Shown here: in pieces, positions 43,803 to 61,909 of the stretch
How the letters are laid out: the number at the start of each line of letters is the position of its first letter
Numbering within the stretch: the first letter of the stretch is position 1
Position numbers and translations under genes: made by a program
Source of the DNA: Candidatus Sulfomarinibacteraceae bacterium
GTDB taxonomy: Bacteria; Acidobacteriota; Thermoanaerobaculia; Thermoanaerobaculales; Sulfomarinibacteraceae
Direction of reading: 5' to 3'
Length of the DNA stretch: 64,000 nt
Assembly (NCBI GenBank): GCA_041552055.1
Contig: JBFELO010000006.1
Coordinates: 6,613 to 70,612, forward strand
The notes under the pieces: model-generated
Told to the model about the DNA's origin: nothing
The model's input: the letters and a program-made list of their open reading frames with translations, nothing else
Databases searched by the model: none

Positions 43803-43804
43803 CC

Positions 43805-44116
43805 ATGCTCAAGCACAGGGTCTTCGCCGCGGTCACGCTGCTCGAGGTCGCCCTCCTGGTGGTACTGGTGCTCCACTGCAACGCGCGCCGTCAGCGAGAG
43901 TCGGCGAGCGTGATCCCCGCCAACCGGCACCTCGCCCGGCAGCTCGAGCTCACGGACCTCGCGATCTGGACGGAGGCGCGCTACACCCGCCACCCCTCGC
44001 AGGCGGACCGGTTCGCACCATTCCAGGACCTGCCGTCCTCGCTCGAGCACTTCCCCGCGGGATCGGTCGTCCCGCCCCCCGAGCGCGCCCCCGAGCCGGG
44101 GCGGGGATCGCGGTAG
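43805..44116 (+). CDS. Small single-pass membrane protein, unknown function
   Basis: The ATG lies 3 nt after the nosL stop. TM helix VFAAVTLLEVALLVVLVL. Confidence 0.45.
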   Translation: MLKHRVFAAVTLLEVALLVVLVLHCNARRQRESASVIPANRHLARQLELTDLAIWTEARYTRHPSQADRFAPFQDLPSSLEHFPAGSVVPPPERAPEPGRGSR

Positions 44117-44127
44117 GCTGGGGCGCC

Positions 44128-45285
44128 ATGCAACGGTTCAAGATCCTCGAGTACGCGCTGTCGTCGCTCGGACGCCGCAAGGGCAAACACCTTTCGATCA
44201 TAGCCGTCTACGCCTTCACCATCAGCGTGCTGGCGTCGATCCTGCTCCTCAGCCACGCCCTGCGGGAGGAGGCGTCCGCGATTCTGGCCGACGCTCCGCA
44301 CGTCGTGGTCCAGCGGATCTCCGCCGGCCGCCACGACCTGATCTCCACCGACATCATCGATCCGGTGCGGCAGATCCCCGGCGTCGGGGAGGTCCGCCCG
44401 CGCTACTGGGGCTACTACTTCGACGGAATCACCGGCGCCAACTACACCGTGCTCGGCATCGATGACCGGCGCACGGTCGAGCTCGAGTTGCTGGAAGGCG
44501 CGCTGCCCGAGGCACCGGGTGAGTGTGCGGTCGGCGGCGGGGTGTCGGAGCTGCGAGAGGCCGGCATCGGCGACGAGCTGGTGCTGGTCGACAGCCGCGG
44601 TGTCGGGGTGATCTTCGAGGTGGTCGGCGCGTTTCGCTCGGAGTCGAACCTTCTGACCAACGATCTTGTAGTGATGTCGAACGCCGACGTGATCGAGTTC
44701 TTCGACCTGCCGCAGAACCGGGCCACCGACCTCTCGGTCGAGGTTTTCAACCCCAAGGAGGTCCAGACCGTCGCGGCCAAGATCAAGGTGCTCTACCCCG
44801 ATACCAGGCCGATCACCAGGAGCGAGATCATCAGGACCTACGACGCGGTGTTCCACTGGCGCAGCGGCATGGTGCTCATGGTCTTCTTCTCGGCGTTGAT
44901 CGCCTTCTGCATCCTGGCGTGGGACAAGGCCACCGGCATAAGCGCCGAGGAGCGGCGGGAGATCGGGATCCTCAAGGCGATCGGCTGGTCCACCTCGGAC
45001 GTGCTCGAGCTCAAGTTCTGGGAGGGAGCGGCGATCTCGGTGACCTCTTTCCTGCTCGGTCTGATCGCCGCCTTCGTCCACGTGTTCCTGCTCGACGCCC
45101 CGGCACTGGCCGCGGTGGTCAAGGGCTGGTCAGTGCTGTTCCCGCAGTTTCGGCTCACCCCCTCCCTCAACCTGTACCAGATCTTCGTCATGGGCTTCCT
45201 CACGGTGGTGCCGTACGTCGCCAGCACGGTGATCCCGTCCTGGACGGCCGCCATCACCGACCCGGAGGAGGTGATGCGGGCATGA
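44128..45285 (+). CDS. ABC transporter permease, FtsX/MacB-LolC type with a periplasmic domain
   Basis: TM1, then a roughly 220-aa extracytoplasmic domain, then three TM helices. Contains GILKAIGWS. Confidence 0.85.
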   Translation: MQRFKILEYALSSLGRRKGKHLSIIAVYAFTISVLASILLLSHALREEASAILADAPHVVVQRISAGRHDLISTDIIDPVRQIPGVGEVRPRYWGYYFDGITGANYTVLGIDDRRTVELELLEGALPEAPGECAVGGGVSELREAGIGDELVLVDSRGVGVIFEVVGAFRSESNLLTNDLVVMSNADVIEFFDLPQNRATDLSVEVFNPKEVQTVAAKIKVLYPDTRPITRSEIIRTYDAVFHWRSGMVLMVFFSALIAFCILAWDKATGISAEERREIGILKAIGWSTSDVLELKFWEGAAISVTSFLLGLIAAFVHVFLLDAPALAAVVKGWSVLFPQFRLTPSLNLYQIFVMGFLTVVPYVASTVIPSWTAAITDPEEVMRA

Positions 45286-45980
45286 CCGCGACCGCGTCGA
45301 CCCTGATCGCCACCGAGGGCGTCACCAAGGTGTACAACTCACGCCGGCCGGACGAGACGGTCGCGGTCGCCGGCGTGTCGATGGAGGTCGGTCAGGGAGA
45401 GGTCGTCGTGCTGAAGGGGCCGAGCGGCTCGGGCAAGACCTCGCTGCTCAGCCTGGTCGGCTGCATGGCCCGGCCGACCTCCGGGCGGATCGTGGTCGAC
45501 GGGCGCGACGTCGCCAAGCTCGCCGAGAGCGTGCTCACCGAGGTGCGCCGGCAGACGTTTGGATTCATCTTCCAGCAGTTCAACCTGATCCCCGGACTGA
45601 GCGTGATCGAGAACGTGTCCCTGCCGCTGGTCCCGGTGACGATCGGGCTTGCGGACATGAGGCACCGTGCCGAGGGCGTGCTCCGGCGACTGGAACTCGG
45701 CGCAAAGGCGCGGCGCAAGGTCCGCCAGCTGTCCGGGGGCGAGCAGCAGCGGGTGGCGATCGCGCGGGCCCTCATCAACGAGCCCGAGGTGGTGGTCGCC
45801 GACGAGCCCACGGCCCACCTCGACCGCGCCCTGTCCGAGGAGCTGCTCGTGATCCTCGCGGAGCTCAACCGGGAGGGGCGAACCGTGATCGTGGCGACCC
45901 ACGACCCACTGGTCTACGAGCACCCGTTCGTGACCCGCGTGCTGGCGATGCGCGACGGCCGGATCGAGACGGCGAGCTGA
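45282..45980 (+). CDS. ABC transporter ATP-binding protein
   Basis: Walker A GPSGSGKTS, signature LSGGEQQRVAIARAL and Walker B VVVADEPT. ATGA overlap with the permease. Confidence 0.9.
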   Translation: MTATASTLIATEGVTKVYNSRRPDETVAVAGVSMEVGQGEVVVLKGPSGSGKTSLLSLVGCMARPTSGRIVVDGRDVAKLAESVLTEVRRQTFGFIFQQFNLIPGLSVIENVSLPLVPVTIGLADMRHRAEGVLRRLELGAKARRKVRQLSGGEQQRVAIARALINEPEVVVADEPTAHLDRALSEELLVILAELNREGRTVIVATHDPLVYEHPFVTRVLAMRDGRIETAS

Positions 45981-45982
45981 CG

Positions 45983-46990
45983 GTGATCCTGCATCCGGGC
46001 ACCCTGTCGCTCATCCTCGGCAGTGCCATCGTGCTGGTCATGGTGACGTACGGCGGTTGGATCGGGCTGCAGATCCTGTTCCGGTGGGACTTCAGCAGCA
46101 GTTCCGAGGGTCAGCTCGACCTCGAGCGCAAGACCTCGCTGGTGTCGACGCTCGCCGCCTACGCGCTCGGCTTCCAGGCGGTGTCGACCCTGCTCTACCT
46201 GTACACCGTGGACGACATCCACAGCCTCTTCGTGGGCGCCATGTGCGCCACCGGCTCGCTCAACGCCGCGCCTGGTGGCTGGGCGGTGCTGGCCGTCAAG
46301 AGCGCGGCGCTCTTTCTGTCGCTGATCTGGATCGCGTTCAACCACTTCGACCAGAGGGCGGGGGACTACCCGATCGTGCGCTTCAAGTACGCGGCGCTGC
46401 TGGTTCTCGCCCCACTCGTCGCGGCGGACCTGGCGTTACTTGTCCGCTACTTCACCGGGCTCGAACCCGAGGTCATCACCTCGTGCTGCGGCGCCCTGTT
46501 CAGCGAGGGGGGAACCGGAGTGGCGAGCGAGGTCGCGAGCCTGCCCGTGGTGCCAATGCTGTGGCTGTTCTACGCCACGGTCGCCGCGTTCCTGGCGGCC
46601 GCGCTCGTATGCGTGGTGGGCCGGGCGCGGGGCTCGAGGTACGCGCTCGCGGGAATCTCGATGGCACTTCTCGCGGTGGTGCTGGCGTCAATCGTGTCGT
46701 TCCTGTCGCTGTACGTCTACGAGCTGCCGACCCACCACTGTCCGTTCGACATGCTCCAGCGGCAATACGGCTTTATCGGCTATCCGATCTACCTGACGCT
46801 GCTCGCGGCGGTGTACTTCGGCCTCCTGCCGGGGCTGTTCCAGCCGTTGCGGAGGATCCCGAGCCTGTCAGGGTTGATCGCGGCCGCCGAGCCGAGGTGG
46901 CTGACCTGGGCGCTGGTGTCGGTGCTCGCGTTCGTCGCCATCGCCTCGTGGCCGGTGCTGTTCGGGTCGCTTACGATGATCGGTTACTGA
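45983..46990 (+). CDS. Polytopic membrane protein of unknown function (conserved-looking SCCG and HHCPFD motifs)
   Basis: About eight hydrophobic helices. The GTG lies 3 nt after the ATPase stop. Confidence 0.55.
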   Translation: MILHPGTLSLILGSAIVLVMVTYGGWIGLQILFRWDFSSSSEGQLDLERKTSLVSTLAAYALGFQAVSTLLYLYTVDDIHSLFVGAMCATGSLNAAPGGWAVLAVKSAALFLSLIWIAFNHFDQRAGDYPIVRFKYAALLVLAPLVAADLALLVRYFTGLEPEVITSCCGALFSEGGTGVASEVASLPVVPMLWLFYATVAAFLAAALVCVVGRARGSRYALAGISMALLAVVLASIVSFLSLYVYELPTHHCPFDMLQRQYGFIGYPIYLTLLAAVYFGLLPGLFQPLRRIPSLSGLIAAAEPRWLTWALVSVLAFVAIASWPVLFGSLTMIGY

Positions 46991-47573: not shown

Positions 47574-48188
47574 ATGAGCAGATTCAGGCAGGTGGTGACA
47601 GTTTTATCTCTAAGTGCGGCGCTCACGACGATATTCGCCCCGTCTCCTGCGGCGGCCGACGACAAGCAGCGTTTCACCCGCGACGAGGTCACGGTCGTGC
47701 CGCCGGCCGTCACCCTGATCGACCAGAACGGCGACACGGTTGACTTCGAGGCGGCGCTGTCTTCGGACAGACCGGTGTTCGTGGACTTCATCTTCGCCAC
47801 CTGCACCACCATCTGCCCGGTGCTCTCCGCCGGCTACTCGAGCATCCAACGCAAGCTCGGCGAAGACCGGGAGCGGGTCCACCTGATCTCGATCACCATT
47901 GATCCCGAGCACGACGGTCCCGAGGAGCTGACCGGCTACCTCGAGCGGTACCGCGCGCAGTCCGGCTGGGATTTCCTGACCGGGACCCGCCAGGACATCG
48001 ATGCTGTGATGCGCGCTTTCGACGCCTTCGTGCCCGACAAGATGTCCCACAAACCGCTGATCTTCATCCGCTCGCCACAGGACGACAGCTGGGTGCGGCT
48101 GTACGGCTTCGCCCGCAGCTCCGACCTGATGGCCGAGCTGGAGCGGGCTGCAGGAGAAGCCGAGGCGGGAGAGGAGGTGGCGCGATGA
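47574..48188 (+). CDS. SCO1/SenC-family copper chaperone / thiol-disulfide protein
   Basis: Signal peptide. FIFATCTTICP (CxxxCP), LISITIDPEHD and a downstream His (MSHKP). Confidence 0.85.
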   Translation: MSRFRQVVTVLSLSAALTTIFAPSPAAADDKQRFTRDEVTVVPPAVTLIDQNGDTVDFEAALSSDRPVFVDFIFATCTTICPVLSAGYSSIQRKLGEDRERVHLISITIDPEHDGPEELTGYLERYRAQSGWDFLTGTRQDIDAVMRAFDAFVPDKMSHKPLIFIRSPQDDSWVRLYGFARSSDLMAELERAAGEAEAGEEVAR

Positions 48189-49951
48189 CTCTGAGGAGTG
48201 GGCAGTCACCGCGGCCCGGAAATGATCCGCCGTTTCGAGCGCGCTGGCAGCCGCTGCGAGTGGGAGCAGTCGCTGGTCGCTGGTCGCTGGTCGCTGGGCT
48301 ACTCTCAGGGGCGTTGTGCGCCGTGGTGGCGGCGCAAGAGGGGACCATCGGGGGCTACCCGCCCGACGAGGCGCTGGAGCTCGGCGAGCGCATGTACCGC
48401 GAGGGCCTGCTGCCATCCGGCGAGCCGATGCGCGCCTTCGTGTCCGAGGACATCGAGGTCGACGGCACCATGTTCAGCTGTGAGAGCTGCCACCTGCGCA
48501 GCGGCATGGGCTCGATCGAGGGCACGGTAATCACCTACCCGACCTGCGGCTCGTGGCTGTTCAAACCGCTGCAGGGCGCCGAGATGAAGCCGCTGTCCCA
48601 GGAGCGGGTGCCCGACCGCCTCGACCCGCCGCCGTTCCGGCCGTCCTACACCGCCTCCACCCTGTCGCGCGCGATCCGGCTCGGCAGGGATCCCAACGGC
48701 CGCACCCTGAACTACGTGATGCCGCGATACTCCCTGTCGAGCGCCGACACGGAGGTCCTGATTCACTACCCGAAGAACCTGTCGGCCGAGTTCTCCCCCG
48801 GGGTGGACGACACGACCCTGCGCTTCGCCACGGTGGTCAGCCACGACGTCGACCCCGAGGACCGAGAGGCGATGGTCGCGACGCTGGAGGCCCACGTCCG
48901 CGACCACAACAGCCAGAGCCGGCACGAGGAGCGCCGCGCCAGGGGAGGGCCGTTCTACAAGGAGGAGAAGTACGCTCCCTACCGGAGGTACGCTCTGTCG
49001 GTGTGGCAGCTCGACGGTGCACCGGAGACCTGGGGCGACCAGCTCGAGGCGCACTATCGGGAGGAGCCGGTGTTCGCCCTGCTCGGCGGCATCGCGACCG
49101 GCGAGTGGGCACCCATCCACGAGTTCTGCGAGCGCAACCGGATCCCGAACCTGTTTCCGCTGACCGAGTACCCGGTAATCTCCGACACAGACTGGTACAC
49201 CCTGTATCTCGACAAGGGTCACTACAAGGAGGGCGAGACAGCCGCTCGGTACATTCGACGGTCGGACGCGATTCCGGTCGATGCGCCGGTCGTCCAGGTA
49301 TTCAGGGACGAGCCGTCGGCGCGGATGTGCGTGCGCGGATTCGCCGACGCTCGATCCAAAATGCGGCTGACCGCCGCTGGTGAAGTCGAGCTGGGTGCCG
49401 ACGACGCGGCCGATGCGCAGTTGTGGCGTCGGCTGGCAGAGGAACATCCGGGCGCGGTGTTCGCGCTGTGGCTCGGCGAGGACATTCTCACCATGCTCGG
49501 TGAGCTGTCGTCGGCCGATCCCCCCCCGCCGGCGGTCTTCGTGTCGGCGAGCTTGGTCGGGGACGGGCTGGGCTCGCTCGCAAAAGAGGCACGTCCATTC
49601 ACGTACATCACCCATTCAGCGTCGATCCCGGCCGACGAGGAGCGCACGCGCCTCGCCGTGAAGCGATGGCTGCAGGCGCGGAAAGTACCGGAAATCAATT
49701 TCGACCTACAGTCCAAGATGTACTTCCTTGGCTGGACTCTTGCCGGCATGGTCAAGATGATGCGCGACGACTTCTACCGCGACTACTTCTTCGACATCGC
49801 CGACATGATGCGGGACCAGTACTACTCGATCGCGGTCTACCCCCGCCTCAGCTTCGGCCCGGGCCAGCGCTACGCCTCCAAGGGCTGCTATGTCGTGCAG
49901 CTGACCGAGGACGGCACCTTGGAGAAGGTCAGCAACTGGGTGGTGCATTGA
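48185..49951 (+). CDS. Exported mono-haem cytochrome c domain fused to a large periplasmic solute-binding-like domain
   Basis: ERMYREGLLPSGEPMRAFV...FSCESCHLRSGMGSIEG, followed by about 430 aa that look alpha/beta. ATGA overlap with the SCO1 stop. The identity of the C-terminal domain is uncertain. Confidence 0.65.
   Translation: MTLRSGQSPRPGNDPPFRARWQPLRVGAVAGRWSLVAGLLSGALCAVVAAQEGTIGGYPPDEALELGERMYREGLLPSGEPMRAFVSEDIEVDGTMFSCESCHLRSGMGSIEGTVITYPTCGSWLFKPLQGAEMKPLSQERVPDRLDPPPFRPSYTASTLSRAIRLGRDPNGRTLNYVMPRYSLSSADTEVLIHYPKNLSAEFSPGVDDTTLRFATVVSHDVDPEDREAMVATLEAHVRDHNSQSRHEERRARGGPFYKEEKYAPYRRYALSVWQLDGAPETWGDQLEAHYREEPVFALLGGIATGEWAPIHEFCERNRIPNLFPLTEYPVISDTDWYTLYLDKGHYKEGETAARYIRRSDAIPVDAPVVQVFRDEPSARMCVRGFADARSKMRLTAAGEVELGADDAADAQLWRRLAEEHPGAVFALWLGEDILTMLGELSSADPPPPAVFVSASLVGDGLGSLAKEARPFTYITHSASIPADEERTRLAVKRWLQARKVPEINFDLQSKMYFLGWTLAGMVKMMRDDFYRDYFFDIADMMRDQYYSIAVYPRLSFGPGQRYASKGCYVVQLTEDGTLEKVSNWVVH
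48269..48296. repeat. Heptamer tandem array (GTCGCTG)x4 inside the signal-peptide coding region of the 48185 gene
   Basis: Read directly from the sequence. The same word occurs as a module of the intergenic repeats, for example at 370-385, 24455-24470 and 50970-50985. Confidence 0.9.
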
Positions 49952-50095: not shown

Positions 50096-50803
50096 CTAAC
50101 TCGCCTGCCTCGTCAGCACGCTCCGCAGCCGTGACTGGTCCGAGTCGGAGAACGACACGAAGCGGGCGCCGATGCCTTCGACGCGCTCGCGCCGGGGATC
50201 GGTGGTGCGCGCGACGCACGCCCGGCCGCGAATCGGCACCTCGTCGCCCGGCACCGCCATCGCGAAGCTCAGGGTCGCGCCGACAGGGAGCACCGCCGCG
50301 CGCGAGCAGTTCACGAGCATGCCCGACAGCGACACGTTCTCGGTCAGGCACGCCGCGGTCAGCGGGGAGCCGTGGAGCTCGGCGGTGACCTTGACCGGCG
50401 TCCGGAGCTCGAACCGGCGAGCCACGTCGAGCAGGGAGAGCACGGTGTCCTGCCACAGCTCCTGCGACTTGTCGATGGACACGACGTGGTTGACGCCGCG
50501 TCCGATGAGGCGGCGCGCCTCGGCCATCGACGCGGGCCCGGCGAACAGCACGATCGCGGCGTGGCGACTCAAGGATGAGGGCGACCGGTACTCCTCGACA
50601 CAGGCACGAATTCGGGATCCGTCCTCCGGACAGCCGGCGAGGATCAGGTCGAGCTCGGTGCGGGTGATCACGGATGGTGTGTGGTCGCCCCAGGGGAGGC
50701 GGATGAAGTCGACGTCGAACGCACCGAGCAGCAGCACGAGCTGTCGCGCCAGCTCGTCGCCGAGCCCGAGGAGTGCAACGTGATGCCGGGTGGATTCCGT
50801 CAT
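50096..50803 (-). CDS. PilZ-domain protein with an N-terminal receiver-like domain
   Basis: The C-terminal text LTENVSLSGMLV...VARTTDPRRERVEGIGARFVSF is typical of PilZ. The N-terminal half has a flavodoxin-like alternation. Confidence 0.6.
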   Translation of the reverse strand: MTESTRHHVALLGLGDELARQLVLLLGAFDVDFIRLPWGDHTPSVITRTELDLILAGCPEDGSRIRACVEEYRSPSSLSRHAAIVLFAGPASMAEARRLIGRGVNHVVSIDKSQELWQDTVLSLLDVARRFELRTPVKVTAELHGSPLTAACLTENVSLSGMLVNCSRAAVLPVGATLSFAMAVPGDEVPIRGRACVARTTDPRRERVEGIGARFVSFSDSDQSRLRSVLTRQAS

Positions 50804-52158: not shown

Positions 52159-55100
52159 ATGAACACGGATGTCACATCGCGTATTCGACCCGCGCGCGGG
52201 GCGCACCTCAAGCTGCTGCTCGGGGTGCTCTGCGTCGCCGTGCTGGCGGCGACACCGGCCGGCGCGCAGACCATCAAACTTGTGAATGGCGAAACCGGGG
52301 CGGACATCACCGGAACCGTCGGTTACAAGTGGACCCTCGAGCGGGACACCACCTACCACGTCGTGCCCGGACAGCCGGACTCGACCACCCCGACGCAGGC
52401 GGTGGACTTCCACGTCAGCTACTACCCGGTGGTCGCCCAGGGGTGCGTCGGTGCGTGGTGCGAATCCGTGCTCGCTCCGAGCGTGCCGGACGACACCCTG
52501 CACTACTTCCTGTCGGTGTTGCCCGAGAGCGGCTACACCATCGGCGGCGCGCAGATCGCGCCCGGACAGACCGATGTCACGGTCTACCTGAACCCGTGGC
52601 CGATCCCCACCGCGCAGATCAGCCTGTTCGTCTTCGAGGACAACTTCCCGATCAACAACGCGCCCGATCTGCCCGAGGAGTTGGGCATCGAAGGCTGGCA
52701 GGTCGTGGTCGAGGACGCGGGCGGCCGCTACGGCGCGTCCGCGGGCCAGAACATCATGGACGCGTTCGGCAACCCGCTCGGCACCACCTACGTGGACGGC
52801 TGCAACCCGTACGACCAGCTCTGCAGCCCATGGGACCCGACGTGCATACCGGAGACAGGGTCCTGCGTCGACACCCTCGGCACAGGGATGCTCTACACCG
52901 GACCGGGCGGCCGGCTGACCATCAAGAACCTGGCGCCGGGCAAGTACGGCATCATCGTGGTCCCGCCCGCCGGCCAGGGCTGGCAGCAGACCTCCACCAT
53001 CGAGGGGACCAAGGTGATCGACGCCTGGGTCAAGGCCCGCGAGCCGGAGTTCTTCGCCGAGTTCGGTCCGCCGGGACCGCACGTGTTCATCGGCTTCACC
53101 CGGACCTACGACTGCTTCAACGGTCCGTTCGACGCCCCGACGTGTGAGGGTGTAGCTGCCGGCGGCAACACCATCTCCGGCCAGATCACCAATTTGCACA
53201 TCTCGCGGCCACCCGCCACCCAGTTCTTCGGCGGCGCCCCGATCGGCCACACCACGGCGTGGGTCGCGCTCAACGACCTCAGTGCGCCGCCCAAAGGCAA
53301 GACGGTGTTCGCCGGACCGACCGGAGACGAAGGCCTCTTCTCCATCGCCGGCGTGCCTGACGGCAGCTACGAGCTCGTGGCCTTCGACAACAACCAGGAC
53401 GTCATCATCGGCTTCGTGCCCATCACGATCGGTCCCCCCGGCACGGTGCCACCACCGACGTGCGAAACCGGGGTGCCCTGCGATCTCGGCGAGGTGCCGG
53501 TCCGCCAGTGGTTCACGCGGCTCGAGAACTTCGTGTTCTACGACGACGACGGCAACGGCTACTGGGATTCCGGTGAGAGCGGCCTGCTCGAGCAGAACGT
53601 CAACGTGCGCTGGCGCGACGGCACCATCAACCAGGCGGCGGCCACCGACGGCGACGGCTTCGTGCCGTTCGACGAGGTGTTCCCGTTCTTCGCCTGGTTG
53701 GTGGCCGAGGTCGACTTCGCCCGCTTCAAGGCCACCGGCGCCACCGTGATCGTGGACGACGGCGGGGAAATCCCCACGTATACCGAGAACCTGAACTGGC
53801 CCGCCGACCCGGCCGCGGATCCCACCGTGGGCGGGCAGCTCAACCCGCAGCTGCAGCCGGACAACGGAGAGGCGCCCTACCGGATCGAGGAAGGCACGGT
53901 GCTCACCCAGGGCTTCCAGGGCTTTCTCGGCCAGACCAGCGCCATCTACTGGGGCAAGCAGGCCTGGGGTGCCAACGAGAACGGCGGCATCTCGGGCATG
54001 GTCTACTACGCCGTCACCCGCGCCGAGGACGACCCGCGCTGGGCCGCGGCCGAGGTGTGGGAGCCGGGTATCCCCGGGGTCACGCTGAATCTCTATACGG
54101 ATTACGACCTCGACGGCCTTCCCGATAACGGCGCAATCATGACGACCGTGACCGACAGCTGGGACGCCGACAAGCCGACCGGTTGCGTGTACCACGGAGA
54201 TCAGGTGTACGTCTTCGATCCGGACGGTAGCGGGTCTCAGCCCGCGCTTACTACCGACTGCTTCGACGGCCTGCGGGTCTTCAACCAGGTGCGGCCGGGC
54301 GTGTTCGATGGCGGCTACGCCTTCGGACCCGAGATCGACTGCACGGATCCAGGATTCCTGGGTGACTGCACCCTACACACCAACGTCGGCGCCGACCTCA
54401 ACAACTATCTCAAGCCCGGCGGCTACATCGTCGAGGCGATCACGCCGGACGGCTACACCCTGGTCAAGGAGGAGGACCGCAACGTCGACTTCGGCGACGA
54501 GTACGTGCCGAGCGGCCTGCTCACCCCGCCGGAGTGCGTGGGTGCCATGCGGACGGTGCCGGCCGACCTGACCCTGTTCCCGGGCGTCGAGGTCGGCTCC
54601 GGCTTCGGCGGCACTTCTCGCCCGCTGTGCGACAAGAAGCAGGTGCTGCTGTCCGGCGGCGCCAACGCGGCGGCCGAGTTCTTCTACTTCACCGAGGCGT
54701 CGATCGCCGGCCACATCGTCGGCTTCATCCTCGACGACACCGCCAACGAGTTCGACCCCCGGTCGCCGCAGTTCGGCGAGAAGTACGCGCCGCCGTGGCT
54801 GCCGGTGTCGATCCGTGACTTCAACGACAACGAGGTGGCGCGCATCTACTCGGACCAGTTCGGCCGCTACAACGTGCCGGTGCCGTCCACCTTCACGGCC
54901 AACCTGCCGATGCCGAGCGGCATGTCGCCGAACATGCTCACGGCGTGCATGAACCACGCGGTCGCGCCCGACCCGGTCACGGGAGGGTTCAAGATCGACG
55001 ACTGGTTCAACGAGCAGTACAGCCAGTTCTGCTACACCTTCCAGTACATGCCGGGCGCCACCACCTACCTCGACACCCCGGTGGTGCCGGCGGCGGCCTT

Positions 55101-57300
55101 TGCCGGACCGGACCGGTTCCCGCTCGACTGCGAGCTGCCGGACGCCACACCGATGATCCACTCGGTGAACGGCCCGGCGAACCAGGGGCCGGTGGCCAAC
55201 AGCGACGAGACCTTGACCATCCAATCGATGGGAACGGTCGATGTCCCGAACCCCGACTTCTGCGACCCGGCGGCGATCGCCGAGTGTCCGCTGGGATCGT
55301 CTCCGGACCGGAACATCCCCCGGGACTACGGCTTCGGTGAAGGTGCCACGGCGACGCTGGGTGGAGTGCCGCTCATCTGTGACGGGGACACGAACACCAT
55401 CAGCTGTACGGTGCTGGGAATCGGTGCCGGTGCCCACCAGCTGCTGGTCACCCGGGCGGGCGGTGCGACCACCGAGGTCGGCGTCACGGTCACGGTCGGT
55501 GAGACCGCGGCGGCGGTTGTGCCGACGGGTGGCTCGATCCAGGCCGCCATCGACGCCGCATCTCCCGGCGATCTGATCACCGTCGAGCCCGGGCTGTACC
55601 AGGAGATGGTCATCATGTGGAAGCCGGTCCGGCTCCAGGGATGGGGCGCGGGCTCGGTGCTCATCAACGCCATCAACACCCCGAACGAGAAGCTGCAGCT
55701 GTGGCGCGACAAGATCGCCGAGCTGGAGGCAGCCGGCGAGTTCGACCTGCTGCCCGGCCAGGAGGCCGGCGCGGGCGTCGGCTTCGAGCCCGCCACCCTG
55801 GGCACCGAGCAGGCGCCGGCGATCATCGTGCTCGGCAAGCGCAACGGTGCAGCCACATACGACAAGCACGCGGCGCGCATCGACGGCCTCGGCATGTTCG
55901 GCTCGAGCACCGGCGGCGGCGTGCTGGTCAACGGCTACGGCAAGACCCTGCAGGTCTCCAACAACCGGATCGAGAACAACACCGGCTTCTACGGCGGTGG
56001 CGTCCGCCTCGGCTACCCGCTCCTGACCGAGTTCCAGGGCCAGCCGGGCTACACCGACGCCGAGAACTCCGACATCGCGATCCACCACAACCAGATCCTG
56101 CGCAACTCCAGCCTCGAGGCCGGCGGCGGGATCGCACTCTACACCGGCAGCGACGGCTACCAGGTGTACGACAACTACATCTGCGGCAACTTCGCAGCCG
56201 GTGACGGCGCCGGCATCGGCCACGTCGGACTGTCCGACGGCGGCCGGATCGCCGACAACACCATCAACTTCAACGAAAACTTCAACCAGGGCCAGGCCAT
56301 CCACGGCGGCGGCATCCTGATCGGCGGCTCGGCCCCGATCGCTGTCGGCGAGTTCACCGAGGGCGCTGGCAACGTGGCGGTCGAGCGCAACCTGATCCTG
56401 GGCAACATGGCCGGTGCCGGCGACGGCGGCGGCATCGCGCTCAGGCAGGTCAACGGCCAGGAGGTCCGCGTCACGGGCTCGCTGCTCCAGGGCTTCACCA
56501 TCGACATCTTCAACAACACCATCGCCAACAACATCGCGGGCACGGCCGGCGGCGGCATCTCGCTCGCGGATGCGGCGCTGGTCAACATCCACCACAACAC
56601 CCTGTTCCGCAACGACAGCACCGCGACCACCGCGGCGGTGTGGGATACCATCGCGAAGGTCTCGACACCGCAACCGGCCGGGATCATGTCCTACCCCCAC
56701 AGCGCGCTGCTCGCGGCCGAGACCGGGCAGACCTTCTCCGACCCGGACCTGCGCAACAGCATCGTGATGGAGAACCGGTCGTTCTCCGTGGACGCCAATT
56801 CGGGCGACTTCCTAATCGTTCCGGACGTCACCACCGACCCCGAGGTCTTCGACGACCTCGGAACGCTCACCTGCGACGAGGGCTGCCTGCTCACGTCTGG
56901 GGCCGTCCCGTCGTTGCTGTTCGTCGCGCCGGCCAAGAACACCGGCCGCGCCGAGATCGGTTTGCCCGAGGGAACCACCGGACTGCAGATCTCGGTGGCG
57001 CCCGACGAGGGCGGCAACTTCATCCGGGTGATCTTCGGTCTCAGGCCGTACGATGCTCCGGATGCCAACCCGCTGCTCAGCAACATCGCCGACTACCACC
57101 TGCTGGTGGACAACCTGGCGGCGGTGGATGCGGCCGCTGACGTAGGCGTTGTCGACGACATCGACGGCGGGGCCCGTCCGGCAGGCGCCGGGTTCGACAT
57201 CGGCTCCGACGAGGTCGATTCGCCGGCTGCGGTCGCCGCTCCTGCCGGAGCGGGCGTGCGGGCCGTCGCCAAAGGCCGCCGCGTCGGCGGGGGGAGCTGA
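52159..57300 (+). CDS. 1713-aa secreted protein: N-terminal beta-sandwich-rich region plus a C-terminal NosD/CASH-like right-handed beta-helix
   Basis: Signal peptide LKLLLGVLCVAVLAATPAGAQ. The helix entry is GGSIQAAIDAASPGDLITVEPGLYQE. Periodic turns follow: NNRIENNTG, HHNQILRNSS, DNYICGNFA, ADNTINFNEN, ERNLILGNMAG, FNNTIANNIAG and HHNTLFRNDS. Confidence 0.85.
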   Translation: MNTDVTSRIRPARGAHLKLLLGVLCVAVLAATPAGAQTIKLVNGETGADITGTVGYKWTLERDTTYHVVPGQPDSTTPTQAVDFHVSYYPVVAQGCVGAWCESVLAPSVPDDTLHYFLSVLPESGYTIGGAQIAPGQTDVTVYLNPWPIPTAQISLFVFEDNFPINNAPDLPEELGIEGWQVVVEDAGGRYGASAGQNIMDAFGNPLGTTYVDGCNPYDQLCSPWDPTCIPETGSCVDTLGTGMLYTGPGGRLTIKNLAPGKYGIIVVPPAGQGWQQTSTIEGTKVIDAWVKAREPEFFAEFGPPGPHVFIGFTRTYDCFNGPFDAPTCEGVAAGGNTISGQITNLHISRPPATQFFGGAPIGHTTAWVALNDLSAPPKGKTVFAGPTGDEGLFSIAGVPDGSYELVAFDNNQDVIIGFVPITIGPPGTVPPPTCETGVPCDLGEVPVRQWFTRLENFVFYDDDGNGYWDSGESGLLEQNVNVRWRDGTINQAAATDGDGFVPFDEVFPFFAWLVAEVDFARFKATGATVIVDDGGEIPTYTENLNWPADPAADPTVGGQLNPQLQPDNGEAPYRIEEGTVLTQGFQGFLGQTSAIYWGKQAWGANENGGISGMVYYAVTRAEDDPRWAAAEVWEPGIPGVTLNLYTDYDLDGLPDNGAIMTTVTDSWDADKPTGCVYHGDQVYVFDPDGSGSQPALTTDCFDGLRVFNQVRPGVFDGGYAFGPEIDCTDPGFLGDCTLHTNVGADLNNYLKPGGYIVEAITPDGYTLVKEEDRNVDFGDEYVPSGLLTPPECVGAMRTVPADLTLFPGVEVGSGFGGTSRPLCDKKQVLLSGGANAAAEFFYFTEASIAGHIVGFILDDTANEFDPRSPQFGEKYAPPWLPVSIRDFNDNEVARIYSDQFGRYNVPVPSTFTANLPMPSGMSPNMLTACMNHAVAPDPVTGGFKIDDWFNEQYSQFCYTFQYMPGATTYLDTPVVPAAAFAGPDRFPLDCELPDATPMIHSVNGPANQGPVANSDETLTIQSMGTVDVPNPDFCDPAAIAECPLGSSPDRNIPRDYGFGEGATATLGGVPLICDGDTNTISCTVLGIGAGAHQLLVTRAGGATTEVGVTVTVGETAAAVVPTGGSIQAAIDAASPGDLITVEPGLYQEMVIMWKPVRLQGWGAGSVLINAINTPNEKLQLWRDKIAELEAAGEFDLLPGQEAGAGVGFEPATLGTEQAPAIIVLGKRNGAATYDKHAARIDGLGMFGSSTGGGVLVNGYGKTLQVSNNRIENNTGFYGGGVRLGYPLLTEFQGQPGYTDAENSDIAIHHNQILRNSSLEAGGGIALYTGSDGYQVYDNYICGNFAAGDGAGIGHVGLSDGGRIADNTINFNENFNQGQAIHGGGILIGGSAPIAVGEFTEGAGNVAVERNLILGNMAGAGDGGGIALRQVNGQEVRVTGSLLQGFTIDIFNNTIANNIAGTAGGGISLADAALVNIHHNTLFRNDSTATTAAVWDTIAKVSTPQPAGIMSYPHSALLAAETGQTFSDPDLRNSIVMENRSFSVDANSGDFLIVPDVTTDPEVFDDLGTLTCDEGCLLTSGAVPSLLFVAPAKNTGRAEIGLPEGTTGLQISVAPDEGGNFIRVIFGLRPYDAPDANPLLSNIADYHLLVDNLAAVDAAADVGVVDDIDGGARPAGAGFDIGSDEVDSPAAVAAPAGAGVRAVAKGRRVGGGS

Positions 57301-57329
57301 CCATGACCATTCAGACAAAGGAGCGAGCC

Positions 57330-58766
57330 ATGCAACTGCTCAAACGACTCGACCGAACCGTGGTCCTGGTCGGCGCCCTGGCCCTGGTGCTGGCGGCGAC
57401 GCCGGCCGGTGCCCAGGTGTTCGTGCAGTGCCCGGGGGACCTGGACGGTGACGCCATCCCGGATCCGCCGGCCAGCAATCTCAACCCCGAGGTGAAGTGC
57501 ACCCACCTCTCGTCCGGGGACGGCTTCGCCATGACGGCGGACGGCGAGCCGACCTACATCTTCAGCTTTGCCGACCTGACCGGCCAGGTGTCGGCCCCCA
57601 CGGGGCCCGACTTCGATCCGTTCGCCCAGGGCGCCGCGCTGCGGCGGGGCATGCTGGCCGCCGAGTGGCCGGCGCCCACCGTCGAGCTGGACGAGGGCGA
57701 CGAGTGGTACCTCACTCTGACCAACGTCGGCATGATGATCCGGCCCGACCTGTTCGACCCGCACACGGTGCACTTCCACGGCCACCCCAACATGGCCCCC
57801 GTGTTCGACGGCCTGCCCGAGTCGGGCCTGTCCATCAACATGGGTGCCAGCCTGAGCTACTACTACAAGATCGTCGAGCCGGGCACCTACATGTACCACT
57901 GCCACGTCGAGGCCACCGAGCACATGCAGATGGGCATGCTCGGCAACCTCTACGTGAACCCGGCGCAGAACGGCACGCCGCTGGGCGTGTGTGCCGGTGG
58001 CGCCCCGTGCACGCAGTTCGTCTACAACGACGGCGACGGGTCGACCGGCTACGACGTCGCCTATCCAATCCAGCTCGGCTCGTTCGACAAGGAGTTCCAC
58101 GACGCGAGCTGGAACGTGCAGCCGCTGCCGTTCGCCGACATGAAGGACGAGTACTTCATGATCAACGGCCGCGGCTACCCGGACACCATCAACGTCTCCG
58201 AAGCGTACTGCAGCGTCGGCGGCAGCGTGTACTGTGGCGGGAGGCTAGGGACCAACTTCTGTAAGAACTTCAAGATCGCGCTGCCGCCACCGCTGGGCAA
58301 CATCCAACTCGACCTCGGTGAGTGCGTCGCTTCGTTGGCGCCGCCTACCGACGGTGTCGACCGGCTCAACGGCGGCAAGCCGACGCAGCGGATCGACAGC
58401 CGCATCGTGGCGACCCAGGGCGAGAGGGTGCTGCTCAGGATCTCCAACCTGAACGTCACCACGTTCAACACCCTGACCAGCCCGTGGCTGCCGATGCAGG
58501 TCGTGGGGCGCGACGCCAAGCTGCTGCGCAGCCCGGCCGGTGGCGACATCTACCGCACCACCAACTCGGTGACCCTCGGTGGCGGCATGTCGATGGATGT
58601 GATCCTCGACACCGCCGGCGTGGCACCGGGCACCTACTTCCTGTACTCGAACAACCTGTACCAGCTAAACAATCAGCTGTGCGATCCGACAGATCTGGAT
58701 TGCTTCCAGTACGACAACTTCCAAGGCGGTCTCGGTGGCATGCTGACCGAGATCGTGATCCAGTGA
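57330..58766 (+). CDS. Two-cupredoxin-domain multicopper-oxidase subunit A. The T1 site and half of the trinuclear ligands lie in domain 1.
   Basis: ATG 57330 follows AAGGAG, and a signal peptide is present. Domain 1 carries HTVHFHGH and YHCHVEATEHMQMGM. Domain 2 has no His motif. Confidence 0.85.
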   Translation: MQLLKRLDRTVVLVGALALVLAATPAGAQVFVQCPGDLDGDAIPDPPASNLNPEVKCTHLSSGDGFAMTADGEPTYIFSFADLTGQVSAPTGPDFDPFAQGAALRRGMLAAEWPAPTVELDEGDEWYLTLTNVGMMIRPDLFDPHTVHFHGHPNMAPVFDGLPESGLSINMGASLSYYYKIVEPGTYMYHCHVEATEHMQMGMLGNLYVNPAQNGTPLGVCAGGAPCTQFVYNDGDGSTGYDVAYPIQLGSFDKEFHDASWNVQPLPFADMKDEYFMINGRGYPDTINVSEAYCSVGGSVYCGGRLGTNFCKNFKIALPPPLGNIQLDLGECVASLAPPTDGVDRLNGGKPTQRIDSRIVATQGERVLLRISNLNVTTFNTLTSPWLPMQVVGRDAKLLRSPAGGDIYRTTNSVTLGGGMSMDVILDTAGVAPGTYFLYSNNLYQLNNQLCDPTDLDCFQYDNFQGGLGGMLTEIVIQ

Positions 58767-58779
58767 GAGGAGGAGCGTC

Positions 58780-60204
58780 ATGAAAGTGAAGACCAACCGC
58801 ACTGGGCGCTGGCTCGGCGTGACGCTCGCGGCCGCCGCCCTGCTGGTGCTGACGCCGGTCGCCGAGGCGGCGATCGACGGCATCACCGGGACCGACTTCC
58901 AGTTCGTCGCGAGGGACGGCTACATCAGCACCCCCGACGGCGGCTCGATCTACTGCTGGGGCTACGCCGACGACGGCGGATCGCTCGGCGGCGCCATGCA
59001 GTACCCGGGCCCGACCCTGATCGTCAATCAGTCTGAAACTATTACGATCACCCTCAAGTCGGAGATCCTCGACACGAAGACGCCCGACCCTGCGGACTAC
59101 CTGCCGGTGTCCCTGATCTTTCCCGGCCACTCGGCGTCCGCAACCGGTGGGTCGACCGGGGCGATTACCCAGGAGTCAACGGGTCCCGCAGACACAGTGA
59201 CCTACAGCTTCATCGCCAACTCGCCCGGCACCTACCTCTACCACAGCGGCACCGATCCCAAGGTGCAGGTCGAGATGGGCCTGCTCGGCGTGATCGTCGT
59301 GCGGCCGACCGGCTACAACGATATCAACCGCACCGCCTACGGCACGGAAGCGACCGCCTACGGCCACGAGTACCTGTTCCTGCACACCGAGATGGACCCG
59401 CGGGTCCACCAGCACTACGAGTTCGGCCACGTGGGACCGGAGTGGGACAACACCGAATGGTTTTCGGTCTACTGGTTCCTCAACGGCCGCGCCGCGCCGG
59501 ACGACCTGCTCGAATCCTATGTGCCGTGGCTGCCGCACCAGCCGTACAACATCACCCCGCGCGCCCACCCGGGCGACAAGGTGCTGATGCGGGTGGTCGG
59601 CGCCGGCCGCGAGTCGCACCCGTTCCACCACCACGGCGACCACGCACAGGTGATCGCCCAGGACGGGCAGCTGCTCGACAGTGACGGCCTCGACGAGCTC
59701 GATCTCGCCTACCAGGTGTTCACCATCATGGTCAACCCGGGTCAGACCACGGACGCCTTGTTCGACTGGACCGGCGAGAAAATGGGCTGGGACATCTACG
59801 GCACCCTGGCCGACGGCATGTCGGCGCACGACTGTCTCGATATCTACAACAACGCGACCGGCGCGATGGTGCCGGACAACTACGCCGACACGGAGACGCA
59901 GGGATGCGATCCTGCTGCGGCGACCCCGTGCTTCCCCTATGAGTGGTGTCCCGACCACGACCTGCCGATCCCGGTGACCCTGCCCGAGACCCAGAACCTG
60001 GCGTTCGGCGCCTGGTGGTCGGGCAGCCCGTACCTCGGCACCGGCGGCGCGCTGCCTCCTGGTGAAGGCGGCCTCAACCCGAACTCGGGCTACCCCTTCA
60101 TGTGGCACTCCCACACCGAGAAGGAGCTCACCAACAACGACATCTTCCCCGGCGGCATGCTGACCATGTTCTTCATCGAGCCGCACGGCGTGGCGATCGA
60201 CTGA
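58780..60204 (+). CDS. Two-cupredoxin-domain multicopper-oxidase subunit B. Trinuclear-type ligands lie in domain 2, and there is no T1 cysteine.
   Basis: GGAGGAG SD and a signal peptide. Domain 1 carries degenerate IFPGH and YLYHSG. Domain 2 carries HPFHHHGDH and FMWHSH, with Ser where the T1 Cys would be. Confidence 0.85.
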   Translation: MKVKTNRTGRWLGVTLAAAALLVLTPVAEAAIDGITGTDFQFVARDGYISTPDGGSIYCWGYADDGGSLGGAMQYPGPTLIVNQSETITITLKSEILDTKTPDPADYLPVSLIFPGHSASATGGSTGAITQESTGPADTVTYSFIANSPGTYLYHSGTDPKVQVEMGLLGVIVVRPTGYNDINRTAYGTEATAYGHEYLFLHTEMDPRVHQHYEFGHVGPEWDNTEWFSVYWFLNGRAAPDDLLESYVPWLPHQPYNITPRAHPGDKVLMRVVGAGRESHPFHHHGDHAQVIAQDGQLLDSDGLDELDLAYQVFTIMVNPGQTTDALFDWTGEKMGWDIYGTLADGMSAHDCLDIYNNATGAMVPDNYADTETQGCDPAAATPCFPYEWCPDHDLPIPVTLPETQNLAFGAWWSGSPYLGTGGALPPGEGGLNPNSGYPFMWHSHTEKELTNNDIFPGGMLTMFFIEPHGVAID

Positions 60205-60220
60205 ACGGAGGAGTACTGAG

Positions 60221-61249
60221 ATGAAGAAGCAACCACTGATGACAGCCGTCAGGCGGTCGGCGCTGGTGGCGGCGGTGCTCGCCCTCGTGGCAGTGCCCTC
60301 GTTCGCCGTCGATCTGGTCGCCGTCGCAGCCGTGTGGACGCCGCCCGGTGGCGGGACCCCGATCCCGATGTGGGCCTTCCAGGAAGGCGCGACCTGTCCG
60401 ACACCTCCCGTTGCCTGGGACGTGGGGCCCGCGATCCGGGCGACAGCCGGCGAACTGATTTCGATCAACCTCCTGAACTGCCTCGCAGAGCCGATATCGC
60501 TCATCGCGCCGGGCCTGATGCCCACGACGCCTCCCGATCCCGTGTGGGTCGACGCGGCAGGGACTTTCGTGGCGACCGGTGCGCGACCCCTGGGCGACAC
60601 CACGTCGCGGGTGCGCTCGTTCACGAACGAGGTCGCGCCGGCTGCGAGCGTGATCTACGAGTGGACCGCCAGCGCCGGATCGTTCATCTACCAGAGCGGA
60701 ACCATGGTCTCGATGCAGGTGCCGATGGGCCTGTACGGCCCGGTGATCGTTGAGGCGGCTGCTGGAGAGGCCTATACAGGGATCACGTACGGCAACGAGG
60801 CGATCCTGTTCTACTCCGAGATCGACCCGGCGGTGAATAACGCCGGTGTTCCGGCCAGTGCCGACTACCGGCCGCAGTACTTCCTGGTCAACGGCGAGTC
60901 ATACCCGACGGCCGTGCCGGAGTACGCGACGCCGCCGGCTGCGGGTGAGGATCTGCTGGTCCGGTTCTTCAACGCCGGCCTCGAGACCTCGATGCCGATG
61001 CTCGACGGCGTGCTCATGCAGGTCGTGGCCGAGGACGGCAACGTCACGCCGGGCGGCAGCGTGTATCCCGCGACGCCGGCGGCCTACTCGCTGCTGCTGC
61101 CGGCGGGCAAGACCATCGACGCCATGATCGCGGCGGTTCCGGACGGCAAGTACGCGGTGATCGACCGCACGCTGCGGCTCGACAACGGACCTGGTGTCGA
61201 CGACGACGGCGGCCAGCTGGTGTTCCTCGACTACGCGCCCGCACCGTAG
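60221..61249 (+). CDS. Two-cupredoxin-domain paralogue C with no histidine at all
   Basis: GGAGGAG SD and a signal peptide. MCO-like strand text is FIYQSGTMVSMQVPMGLYGPVIVE and YFLVNGESYP. I found zero His in the 342 aa. Confidence 0.7.
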   Translation: MKKQPLMTAVRRSALVAAVLALVAVPSFAVDLVAVAAVWTPPGGGTPIPMWAFQEGATCPTPPVAWDVGPAIRATAGELISINLLNCLAEPISLIAPGLMPTTPPDPVWVDAAGTFVATGARPLGDTTSRVRSFTNEVAPAASVIYEWTASAGSFIYQSGTMVSMQVPMGLYGPVIVEAAAGEAYTGITYGNEAILFYSEIDPAVNNAGVPASADYRPQYFLVNGESYPTAVPEYATPPAAGEDLLVRFFNAGLETSMPMLDGVLMQVVAEDGNVTPGGSVYPATPAAYSLLLPAGKTIDAMIAAVPDGKYAVIDRTLRLDNGPGVDDDGGQLVFLDYAPAP

Positions 61250-61289: not shown

Positions 61290-61326
61290 CCGGGCGCCCT
61301 CTTCAGCGGGGGCGCCCGGTCTTCTC
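61290..61326 (+). terminator. Rho-independent-type terminator after the cupredoxin trio
   Basis: A 10-bp GC stem, ccgggcgccc / gggcgcccgg, with a 10-nt loop, followed by tcttctc. Confidence 0.6.
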
Positions 61327-61426: not shown

Positions 61427-61909
61427 ATGAGTGATTCGTCGAGCTTCAACAACCGCCGGCTGCGTCCGACCCTCACCGCATTTCTTCTCATCGGGACGTG
61501 CCTGGTGCTGGCAGGCTGCGCCTCCTCGGGCGGCGACGTCGAGTCCGAGGCGGCGTCCGAGCCGCCGCCGCCGAGCGCCGAGGAGCAGTGGGGGGTCGAG
61601 GTCACCAGCGTGCGGGTGTCGGCGGCCGGCCACATGATCGACTTCCGCTACCGGATCCTGGACGCGGAGAAATCGAAACCTCTGTTCGAGCGCCAGACCA
61701 AGCCGTACCTGGTCGATCAGGCGAGCGGCAAGGTGTTGCAGGTGCCGCGCACCGCCAAGCTCGGCCCGTTGCGCCCCTCCAACGTGACCCCGGCCGAGGG
61801 CAAGATCTACACCATGCTGTTCGGCAACACCGGCGGCGTGGTCCAGCCCGGCGCCAGGGTGACCGTGGTGATCGGCGACTTCCGGGTCGAGGACCTGGTG
61901 GTGGAGTAG
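61427..61909 (+). CDS. Lipoprotein of unknown function
   Basis: AAGGAGAAGG SD, and the lipobox LVLAGC. Confidence 0.6.
   Translation: MSDSSSFNNRRLRPTLTAFLLIGTCLVLAGCASSGGDVESEAASEPPPPSAEEQWGVEVTSVRVSAAGHMIDFRYRILDAEKSKPLFERQTKPYLVDQASGKVLQVPRTAKLGPLRPSNVTPAEGKIYTMLFGNTGGVVQPGARVTVVIGDFRVEDLVVE

Follow-up and report, generated by a model that had tools for sequence, protein, structure and literature searches.

Three consecutive genes at 57330-61249 of a 64,000-nucleotide stretch of DNA from a Candidatus Sulfomarinibacteraceae bacterium (assembly GCA_041552055.1, contig JBFELO010000006.1, positions 6,613 to 70,612; the whole stretch is hereafter called the window) encode proteins, here named A, B and C, between which the copper ligands expected of one multicopper oxidase (MCO) are divided. 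A holds, in its first cupredoxin domain, a type 1 copper site (T1) and four of the eight histidines of a trinuclear copper centre (TNC), the other four are found in the second domain of B, and C has none. This partition of ligands, its conservation, the strict co-occurrence of the three genes, the fold of C, and the gene fusions that link them to one another and to a neighbouring gene were all demonstrated in our analysis. Based on these data, we consider it likely that A, B and C form an obligate ring with one T1 and one TNC at the interface between domain 1 of A and domain 2 of B, and that this ring is coupled to G, the giant protein encoded upstream. With somewhat less assurance, we also lean towards the broader view of a widespread cell-envelope machine, in which an obligate heterotrimeric MCO, with an active site built from two gene products and a copper-free third paralogue closing the ring, is attached to a surface protein of 1,700 residues.

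Copper ligands are divided between A and B

The three genes are arranged as follows:

57330-58766, + strand: A, open reading frame (ORF) of 478 residues with a two-domain MCO fold
58780-60204, + strand: B, ORF of 474 residues, the complementary subunit
60221-61249, + strand: C, ORF of 342 residues, with a predicted ligand-free two-domain MCO fold

Stop codons separate the three ORFs, and each of them occupies a different reading frame. Each has its own Shine-Dalgarno sequence (aaggag for A, gaggagg for B and ggagg for C) and a Sec-type N-terminal signal peptide, in agreement with the head-to-tail trio described in the first-pass annotation of this DNA, which had been made from the sequence without database searches. 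The start of A is the ATG at 57330 and not the one at 57303, as homologue starts align to the former. Export of the three proteins through the Tat pathway was considered and rejected, because Tat-like motifs are rare across all three families.

In domain 1 of A, a first motif reads H145-T-V-H148-F-H150-G-H (HTVHFHGH, where the fourth histidine is H152) and a second one Y-H190-C191-H192-VEATE-H198-MQMG-M203, with H190, H192 and H198 lying within YHCHVEATEHMQMGM. H145, C191, H198 and M203 make up the T1 site, while H148, H150, H190 and H192 are TNC histidines. The protein has nine histidines in total, and only H59 and H257 fall outside these two motifs. Neither residue inspection nor family alignments revealed a ligand motif in domain 2 of A. 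In B, the motifs reside in domain 2, and are H280-PF-H283-H-H285-G (HPFHHHG, including H284) and W-H443-S444-H445 (WHSH); H283, H285, H443 and H445 are the TNC histidines, and S444 occupies the position of the T1 cysteine. Within domain 1 of B, H117 and H155 are the sole remnant histidines at positions aligned to the ligands of A, and four more (H196, H202, H210 and H212) sit between the two domains. C contains two cysteines and no histidine whatsoever.

Of the four MCO copper motifs (HxHG, HxH, HxxHxH and HCHxxxHxxxxM), A therefore holds two, B the other two and C none, and the complete set that the MCO superfamily carries on a single chain is present only in A and B combined. When compared to the two-domain MCO of known structure 3G5W, the motifs of A align residue for residue to those of its domain 1 (HTIHWHG and YHCHVNVNEH...M), and those of B to those of its domain 2 (HAIHTHG and IHDH). 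The first-pass annotation had proposed just such an arrangement, with HxHxHGH and HCH...H...M in domain 1 of A and nothing in its domain 2; HPFHHHG and WHSH in domain 2 of B, with serine in place of the T1 cysteine and single-histidine remnants in domain 1; no ligands in C; and a total of eight TNC histidines plus one T1 site from domain 1 of A and domain 2 of B. All of these assignments, including the four-plus-four set, were borne out by the residues and by the alignments. It had also left room for a careful alignment to reveal all four motifs in one protein, and in the family alignments no single protein carries them.

Fold and common origin of the three proteins

Each of A, B and C passed the Pfam gathering score on at least one Cu-oxidase-type model, which places their cupredoxin domains in the MCO superfamily. 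Matches were found on both halves of A and of B, as would be the case for proteins with two cupredoxin domains, and the per-domain mapping suggested in the first-pass annotation assigned Cu-oxidase_3/_2 to domain 1 of A, and Cu-oxidase_3 and Cu-oxidase_2 to domains 1 and 2 of B, respectively. On C, the Cu-oxidase_3 match covers just ~44 residues. The AlphaFold2 model of C, obtained from a 48-sequence alignment, reached a predicted local distance difference test (pLDDT) score of 90.2 and a predicted template modelling (pTM) score of 0.87, and a Foldseek search of this model against the PDB returned 2ZWN_A as the best match (E 3.6e-20), followed by 3G5W_A (E 1.6e-19), with TMt 0.69 over 328 columns for both structures. 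Lower-ranked matches included nitrite reductases, laccases, factor V, factor VIII and ceruloplasmin. As modelled, then, C is a two-domain MCO fold of full size that is devoid of any copper ligand, and because its model matches 2ZWN and 3G5W it would be suited to act as a full-size subunit of a ring.

The same two structures, both type C two-domain MCOs, are the closest solved sequence relatives of A and B. Type C enzymes have their T1 site in the N-terminal domain (PMC13151041; bioRxiv 10.64898/2026.07.28.741245), a feature that among our three proteins is seen in A only. A, B and C are in fact mutually homologous across both domains (hhalign 98.9-100%), with B and C being the closest pair (E 2e-47). 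In profile alignments, the eight domain 1 ligand positions of A correspond to V, V, P, H/Q, S, G, Q and L in both B and C, and the T1 positions in these two proteins are V, S, Q and L. The simplest history for this trio would be one of duplication and complementary loss, where a type C-related ancestor was duplicated and one copy shed its domain 2 half-site to become A, while the second copy shed its domain 1 sites and was then duplicated again to yield B and C, with the domain 2 half-site surviving in the former only.

A number of other features of these proteins are worth recording. A is extended at its N-terminus (residues 30-100; 57330-57630) by a segment in which C34, C57 and H59 are invariant (VQCPGD...KCxHL) and which also has an Asp-rich DxDGD stretch. 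Domain 2 of A contains, at residues 293-346 (58206-58367), a Cys-rich insertion of ~50 residues that is lineage-specific and missing from nearly all relatives, and two more short insertions are found at residues 93-101 and 453-467. Just past domain 1, a histidine is conserved in the families of A (as H257) and B (as H210) and also, at the aligned position, in most proteins of the C family. In B, an insertion in domain 2 (residues 350-393; 59825-59960) brings in H350-x-C352 and C390-x-x-H393 (HxC...CPDH); H393 is near-invariant (75/77 B relatives), and H350, C352 and C390 are present in ~70-75% of them. Judging from these residues, the insertion may harbour a disulfide or an additional metal site.

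The partition is conserved and the three genes travel together

A database search with A returned thousands of relatives, hundreds of which at 50-66% identity and labelled just "multicopper oxidase domain-containing", and a sensitive search with B returned at least 205 clusters at 50% identity (E <= 1e-30). Gene neighbourhoods were compared in two sets of loci. A scan anchored on A, with one genome per species, gave at least 571 confirmed contig matches, and the best 80 loci were kept; a scan of metagenome contigs anchored on B gave at least 536 confirmed matches, of which 80 were also kept. The best 80 A loci belong to Acidobacteriota (Thermoanaerobaculales, Vicinamibacteria and Holophagae), Thermodesulfobacteriota (Desulfopila, Desulforhopalus, Desulfobulbus and Desulfosarcina), Gamma- and Betaproteobacteria (Thioploca, Sedimenticola, Thiohalomonas, Thiobacillus, Methylocaldum, Methyloglobulus and Amphritea), as well as Nitrospirota, Myxococcota, Bdellovibrionota, Krumholzibacteriia and Binatia. 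Altogether, carriers span at least eight phyla and hundreds of species, and include sulfur oxidisers, sulfate reducers related to cable bacteria, and methanotrophs. Some are cultured organisms, such as Desulfopila sp. IMCC35006, Desulforhopalus sp. IMCC35007, Desulfosarcina cetonica, Amphritea pacifica and Dissulfuribacter thermophilus.

Across this range, the division of the ligands is maintained. H145, H148, H150, H190, C191, H192, H198, M199, M201 and M203 are invariant in the 79 genome homologues of A, the T1 and TNC residues among them are invariant also in 120 database matches, and no conserved histidine motif exists in domain 2 of these 79 sequences. In the B family, H280, H283 and H285 are present in 77/77 sequences and H443, S444 and H445 in all of the 74 that cover the site, and domain 1 ligands are absent from all 77. 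The 71 sequences of the C family have no invariant His or Cys column. Because the pattern is invariant in 71-79 genomes per family and in at least eight phyla, the partition is a product of neither chance nor decay.

Conservation of gene content is just as strict. Among the 80 genome loci, A is directly followed by B and B by a third gene wherever enough flank was available. Those third genes that at first look like cadherins all open with a C module of ~300 residues, which is then followed by a variable tail; on database relatives of C, such tails are of the cadherin/Big_9, FG-GAP/VCBS, dockerin, PKD or TSP3 type, and most relatives of C have a variable, adhesion-type extension of this sort at their C-terminus. 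With regard to B loci, a separate A gene was found in 60 of the 65 with room upstream, A was within the ORF of G in three, and the remaining two were overlap artefacts of the test. Downstream, 60 of the 64 loci with room had a separate C, three had C fused to G, and one was again an overlap artefact. We found no A or B without its partners in either set of 80 loci where flank was adequate. Of the points raised in the first-pass annotation, the conservation of A-B-C synteny in relatives thus held in genome and metagenome loci alike, and the occurrence of A or B homologues on their own, which would have spoken against an obligate complex, was not seen at any testable locus of the two scans.

Other architectures exist in the wider family. 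P0444 (696 residues) consists of two tandem ligand-free C-like modules and a dockerin, and P0365 (899 residues) and P0399 (732 residues) are B proteins with large inserted or N-terminal extra domains.

Gene fusions

Natural fusions join G, A, B and C in one association network. Single ORFs in which C is followed by a cadherin-type tail and then by G are present at loci L016, L022, L146, L153 and L162; they are ~2,000-2,600 residues long (some being cut by the contig end), contain no runs of N, and retain the signal peptide of C at their start, with no signal peptide of G at the junction. Fusions of G to A, also with a junction free of signal peptide, occur at L062 and L147. In a distant high-GC lineage, B and C are a single chain (P0367, 1,156 residues; P0372, 884 residues), and the contig encoding P0372 has an A-like gene with HTVHWHGF and YHCHFEDSEHVQLGM, followed by the B-C fusion, a D-like gene, a CopC-CopD fusion and an S8-like gene.

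Other candidates were set aside. In the metagenome contigs L086 and L141, G runs into A in frame and with no stop, the signal peptide of A being kept at the junction; here G ends with a hydrophobic helix and an Arg-rich cluster, similar to a PEP-CTERM-type sorting signal, while G in the window has no such anchor. We did not count these two as G-A fusions, as they are ambiguous between a real fusion and a lost stop codon. An apparent A-B fusion in the closest relative, L005, was rejected because a masked run of N shifts the frame and the stop codon of A is present.

A larger conserved unit around A, B and C

A-B-C is the core of a larger conserved unit, in which G precedes the trio and D and an S8 protease come after it; SCO1 and a cytochrome c fusion are frequent neighbours. 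In the window, the features surrounding the core are:

43720-46990, + strand: FtsX-type permease, ABC ATPase and 335-residue polytopic membrane protein
47574-48188, + strand: SCO1/SenC-type copper chaperone or thiol-disulfide protein (tblastn; Pfam SCO1-SenC E 1e-21)
48185-49951, + strand: cytochrome c fusion of 588 residues, mono-haem (CESCH at residue 99) with a periplasmic-binding-protein-like (PBP) domain
52159-57300, + strand: G, giant secreted protein of 1,713 residues (ORF with Pfam/NCBIfam matches)
61290-61325, + strand: GC-rich hairpin between C and D, stem 61290-61299 / 61310-61319, then TCTTCT (read from the sequence)
61427-61909, + strand: D, lipoprotein of ~160 residues with lipobox LAGC and a beta-sandwich of ~100 residues
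61923-64000, + strand, continuing past the window end: S8 subtilisin-like protease with a PKD domain (tblastn match; Pfam Peptidase_S8 E 4e-50)

The order G-A-B-C-D-S8 was found at all adequately covered loci (80 genome loci and 80 metagenome contigs), with G directly upstream of A at nearly all of them and D downstream of C at most. G is composed of beta-sandwich repeats at its N-terminus (SdrD_B and CarboxypepD_reg) and of a right-handed beta-helix at its C-terminus, where weak NosD-like and choice-of-anchor Q matches are seen; Pfam yielded just these generic beta-sandwich and beta-helix matches, and no informative sequence match for G was found in the PDB. The signal peptides of G and A share the end VLAATPAGAQ, and the DNA encoding it (52239-52268 and 57386-57415) is similar over ~30 nucleotides, with 3 mismatches and including a 14-nucleotide exact match. 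D belongs to no Pfam or NCBIfam family and its AlphaFold2 model (pLDDT 81) is a generic beta-sandwich with no significant PDB match; nearly all of its 347 database relatives are unnamed or hypothetical. The hairpin between C and D looks, from its sequence, like an intrinsic terminator or attenuator. The position of the S8 protease after D is conserved, and in some relatives this protein bears a MopE-type copper-binding domain. No NCBIfam curated cut-off was reached by A, B, C, the S8 protease, SCO1 or the cytochrome c fusion.

Within 10 kb of the cluster, members of the SCO1/SenC family were found in 26 of ~76 loci and members of the cytochrome c-PBP family in 26-27, on either side and on either strand; the latter protein is a candidate electron donor for the oxidase. 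Other families at this distance were a LuxR-type response regulator (23 loci), a sigma-54 activator (19 loci) and a histidine kinase (17 loci). Neighbourhoods in relatives also contain copper genes, namely NosL, HMA and a P-type ATPase in L001, and CopCD in L165. The FtsX/ABC/membrane protein trio recurs at 9-10 loci and lies upstream of the cluster in Desulfobulbaceae and Acidobacteriota (L001, L008 and L045, for instance); its layout recalls that of NosDFY, given the weak NosD-like match in G. On the opposite strand of the window, a PilZ-domain protein (50096-50803, -), with a match also to the TIGR02266 paralogue domain, is encoded just upstream of G, and a TonB-dependent receptor with an N-terminal CarboxypepD_reg/SdrD_B domain at 39472-41868 (-).

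Proposed assembly and mechanism

In the trimers formed by two-domain MCOs, each of two adjacent protomers contributes four ligands to a TNC (PMC13151041; bioRxiv 10.64898/2026.07.28.741245). In our model, the paralogous A, B and C would be exported separately via Sec and come together in the cell envelope as a single pseudo-sixfold ring, with domain order B1-B2-A1-A2-C1-C2. Because of the four-plus-four complementarity of ligands, a TNC could form only where domain 1 of A meets domain 2 of B. With the domain 1/domain 2 interface known from trimers of two-domain MCOs (PMC13151041), this sets the order in a ring of three to B-A-C, C taking the third place. Domain 1 of A would thus provide the T1 site for electron entry (H145, C191, H198 and M203) and half of the TNC of a single catalytic unit, domain 2 of B would contribute the remaining four TNC histidines across the subunit interface, and the B1/C2 and C1/A2 interfaces would be without TNC ligand sets. 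Single electrons would enter at T1 and pass through the H190-C191-H192 triad, and O2 would be reduced to water at the one TNC. The role of C would be to close the ring and, through its variable tail, to couple it to the giant surface protein G, while D, the S8 protease, SCO1 and the cytochrome c-PBP fusion would be accessory proteins for assembly, copper supply or electron donation.

Since all three proteins have Sec-type signal peptides, folding, copper loading and assembly would have to take place outside the cytoplasm, and extracytoplasmic copper loading fits the presence of SCO1 and of other copper genes nearby. As for the electron donor, our guess would be, in order, Cu(I) or another metal ion, the neighbouring cytochrome c, and the oxidative modification of G. 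The metal ion is ranked first because the invariant M199 and M201 flank the T1 ligand His198 and because copper genes are found nearby.

Weighing the interpretation

A few considerations weigh against the interpretation given above. The ring, its order and the oxidase activity are what we infer from sequences, the ring in particular from co-occurrence and fusions, and stoichiometry may differ from the one proposed, as in an A2B or AB2 assembly with C at the periphery. The B-C and G-A fusions mirror gene order and not ring adjacency, and are therefore silent on the order of subunits in the ring. Our suggestions on the substrate draw on genomic context, and the hairpin after C could partly uncouple D and the S8 protease from the A-B-C genes. 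Lastly, the first-pass annotation knew of no described system of this kind, and our search of open-access papers and bioRxiv likewise found no description of a split or heterotrimeric two-domain MCO, or of such a cluster; given this scope, an earlier description may exist.

If the composite TNC of A and B is real, the ring could still be A2B, AB2 or a higher oligomer, with C acting as a separate copper-free adaptor or adhesin that happens to share the fold. Some solved two-domain MCOs and nitrite reductases are in fact hexamers or dodecamers (7RAB and 5ZL1), tails of the cadherin/Big_9, FG-GAP, dockerin or PKD type are common on C, and C is fused to G in some lineages. We nonetheless regard this scenario as improbable, because C occurs at every locus with enough flank, keeps a complete two-domain MCO fold, shows the same conserved domain 1 replacements as B, and is fused to B in a distant lineage, and because conserved half-sites would be left without a counterpart in a ring with two copies of A or of B. 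Alternatively, the complex might not be an O2-reducing oxidase at all, and A could be a blue-copper carrier or perform other copper chemistry, with the histidine motifs of A and B storing, sensing or transferring copper, and B and C being structural proteins of the cell surface. Although the copper-handling neighbourhood (SCO1; NosL, HMA and P-type ATPase in L001; CopCD in L165) and the presence of the cluster in strict anaerobes such as Desulfobulbaceae and Desulfosarcina, where O2 is scarce, would be in line with this possibility, we deem it less probable still, as the invariance across phyla of the complete T1 set, of the HCH triad and of all eight histidines of the TNC is the signature of a working path from T1 to TNC, and nothing short of a TNC would explain the exact four-plus-four complementarity. 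Three tandem paralogues with missing ligands could also call to mind a decaying tandem duplication of an ordinary two-domain MCO, with pseudogenisation ongoing in this genome. The chances of this being the case are, however, close to nil: hundreds of species, belonging to at least eight phyla, have this partition in fixed form, and A and B are ~50% identical across that range. No reading frame is broken, each gene retains its Shine-Dalgarno sequence and signal peptide, and pseudogenisation is thus rejected by the conservation data.

Significance

Six-domain MCOs such as ceruloplasmin are thought to have descended from homotrimeric two-domain MCOs. If our interpretation of an obligate A/B/C ring is correct, this system would be a living step between those homotrimers and single-site six-domain oxidases such as ceruloplasmin, where asymmetry was achieved by duplication and complementary loss prior to any gene fusion. 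A large protein family, whose members are now annotated just as "multicopper oxidase domain-containing" or "hypothetical", would be defined as well, and the system may represent a new route of extracytoplasmic O2 reduction or metal oxidation in sediment bacteria, nominal anaerobes included. That the cluster is linked to a giant surface protein, a protease, SCO1 and a cytochrome c points to a copper or oxygen process that takes place outside the cytoplasm.

Comparison with known systems

The copper nitrite reductase NirK combines T1 with a mononuclear type 2 copper, and has an H-C dyad in place of the HCH triad and no HxH pairs in domain 2. In our proteins, A has the HCH triad and B has two HxH pairs in domain 2, and scores on the NCBIfam Cu_nitrite_red model are 27-37 bits, against a cut-off of 296 bits.

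In ceruloplasmin and hephaestin, six cupredoxin domains form a ring with a single TNC at one interface, while the other interfaces are degenerate. The proposed A/B/C ring would resemble these proteins in having one TNC per six domains, and 5N0K and 4ENZ are among the fold matches of C. Enzymes of the ceruloplasmin type, however, are one polypeptide with three T1-type sites, whereas here there are three polypeptides and one T1; furthermore, their T1/HCH domain is the last and pairs with domain 1, while here the HCH domain is the N-terminal one of its chain. The six domains are in our case encoded by three ORFs, and partial fusions, of B to C, are seen in a distant lineage only. Coagulation factors V and VIII, which also match C (7KVE, 4BXS and 4BDV), contain MCO-fold pairs devoid of catalytic copper and serve as scaffolds, as C might do, but these cofactors are eukaryotic, consist of one chain, and are not known to have an oxidase partner encoded next to them. 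The Mnx manganese oxidase of Bacillus (MnxG, MnxE and MnxF) is a bacterial MCO known to be active only as a multi-protein complex from one operon. In Mnx, all six domains of a complete MCO are on MnxG, the small proteins MnxE and MnxF lack the MCO fold, and no active site is known to be split between chains, unlike what we propose for A and B.

The only structure referred to as a heterotrimer in the papers returned by our search is that of the two-domain MCO units of Nmar_1354 of Nitrosopumilus maritimus (9CCK), which assemble as alpha-alpha-alpha' (PMC11761707). There, heterogeneity arises from a single gene product with or without an extra cupredoxin domain (a proteolytic variant) and every protomer has all ligands, in contrast to A, B and C; 9CCK is found among the PDB sequence matches of A and the fold matches of C. 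More generally, a 2026 paper describes two-domain MCOs as trimers and classifies them solely by the position of T1 within a single protomer (PMC13151041).

The nearest relatives remain the type C two-domain MCOs, namely the blue copper oxidase of Nitrosomonas europaea (3G5W) and the metagenomic mgLAC (2ZWN), which have two cupredoxin domains and an N-terminal T1 as seen here, and in which domain 1 of each chain forms a TNC with domain 2 of its neighbour, as proposed for A and B. Known type C members are homotrimers with both half-sites on each chain, and hence three T1 sites and three TNCs (PMC13151041), while in our system the half-sites are on different gene products, the third product has none, and a ring would contain at most one T1 and one TNC. 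A is without the domain 2 half-site, B without that of domain 1, and C without either. Judged by their sequences, A, B and C would together work like a type C two-domain MCO, but one that has given up the presence of both half-sites on every protomer.

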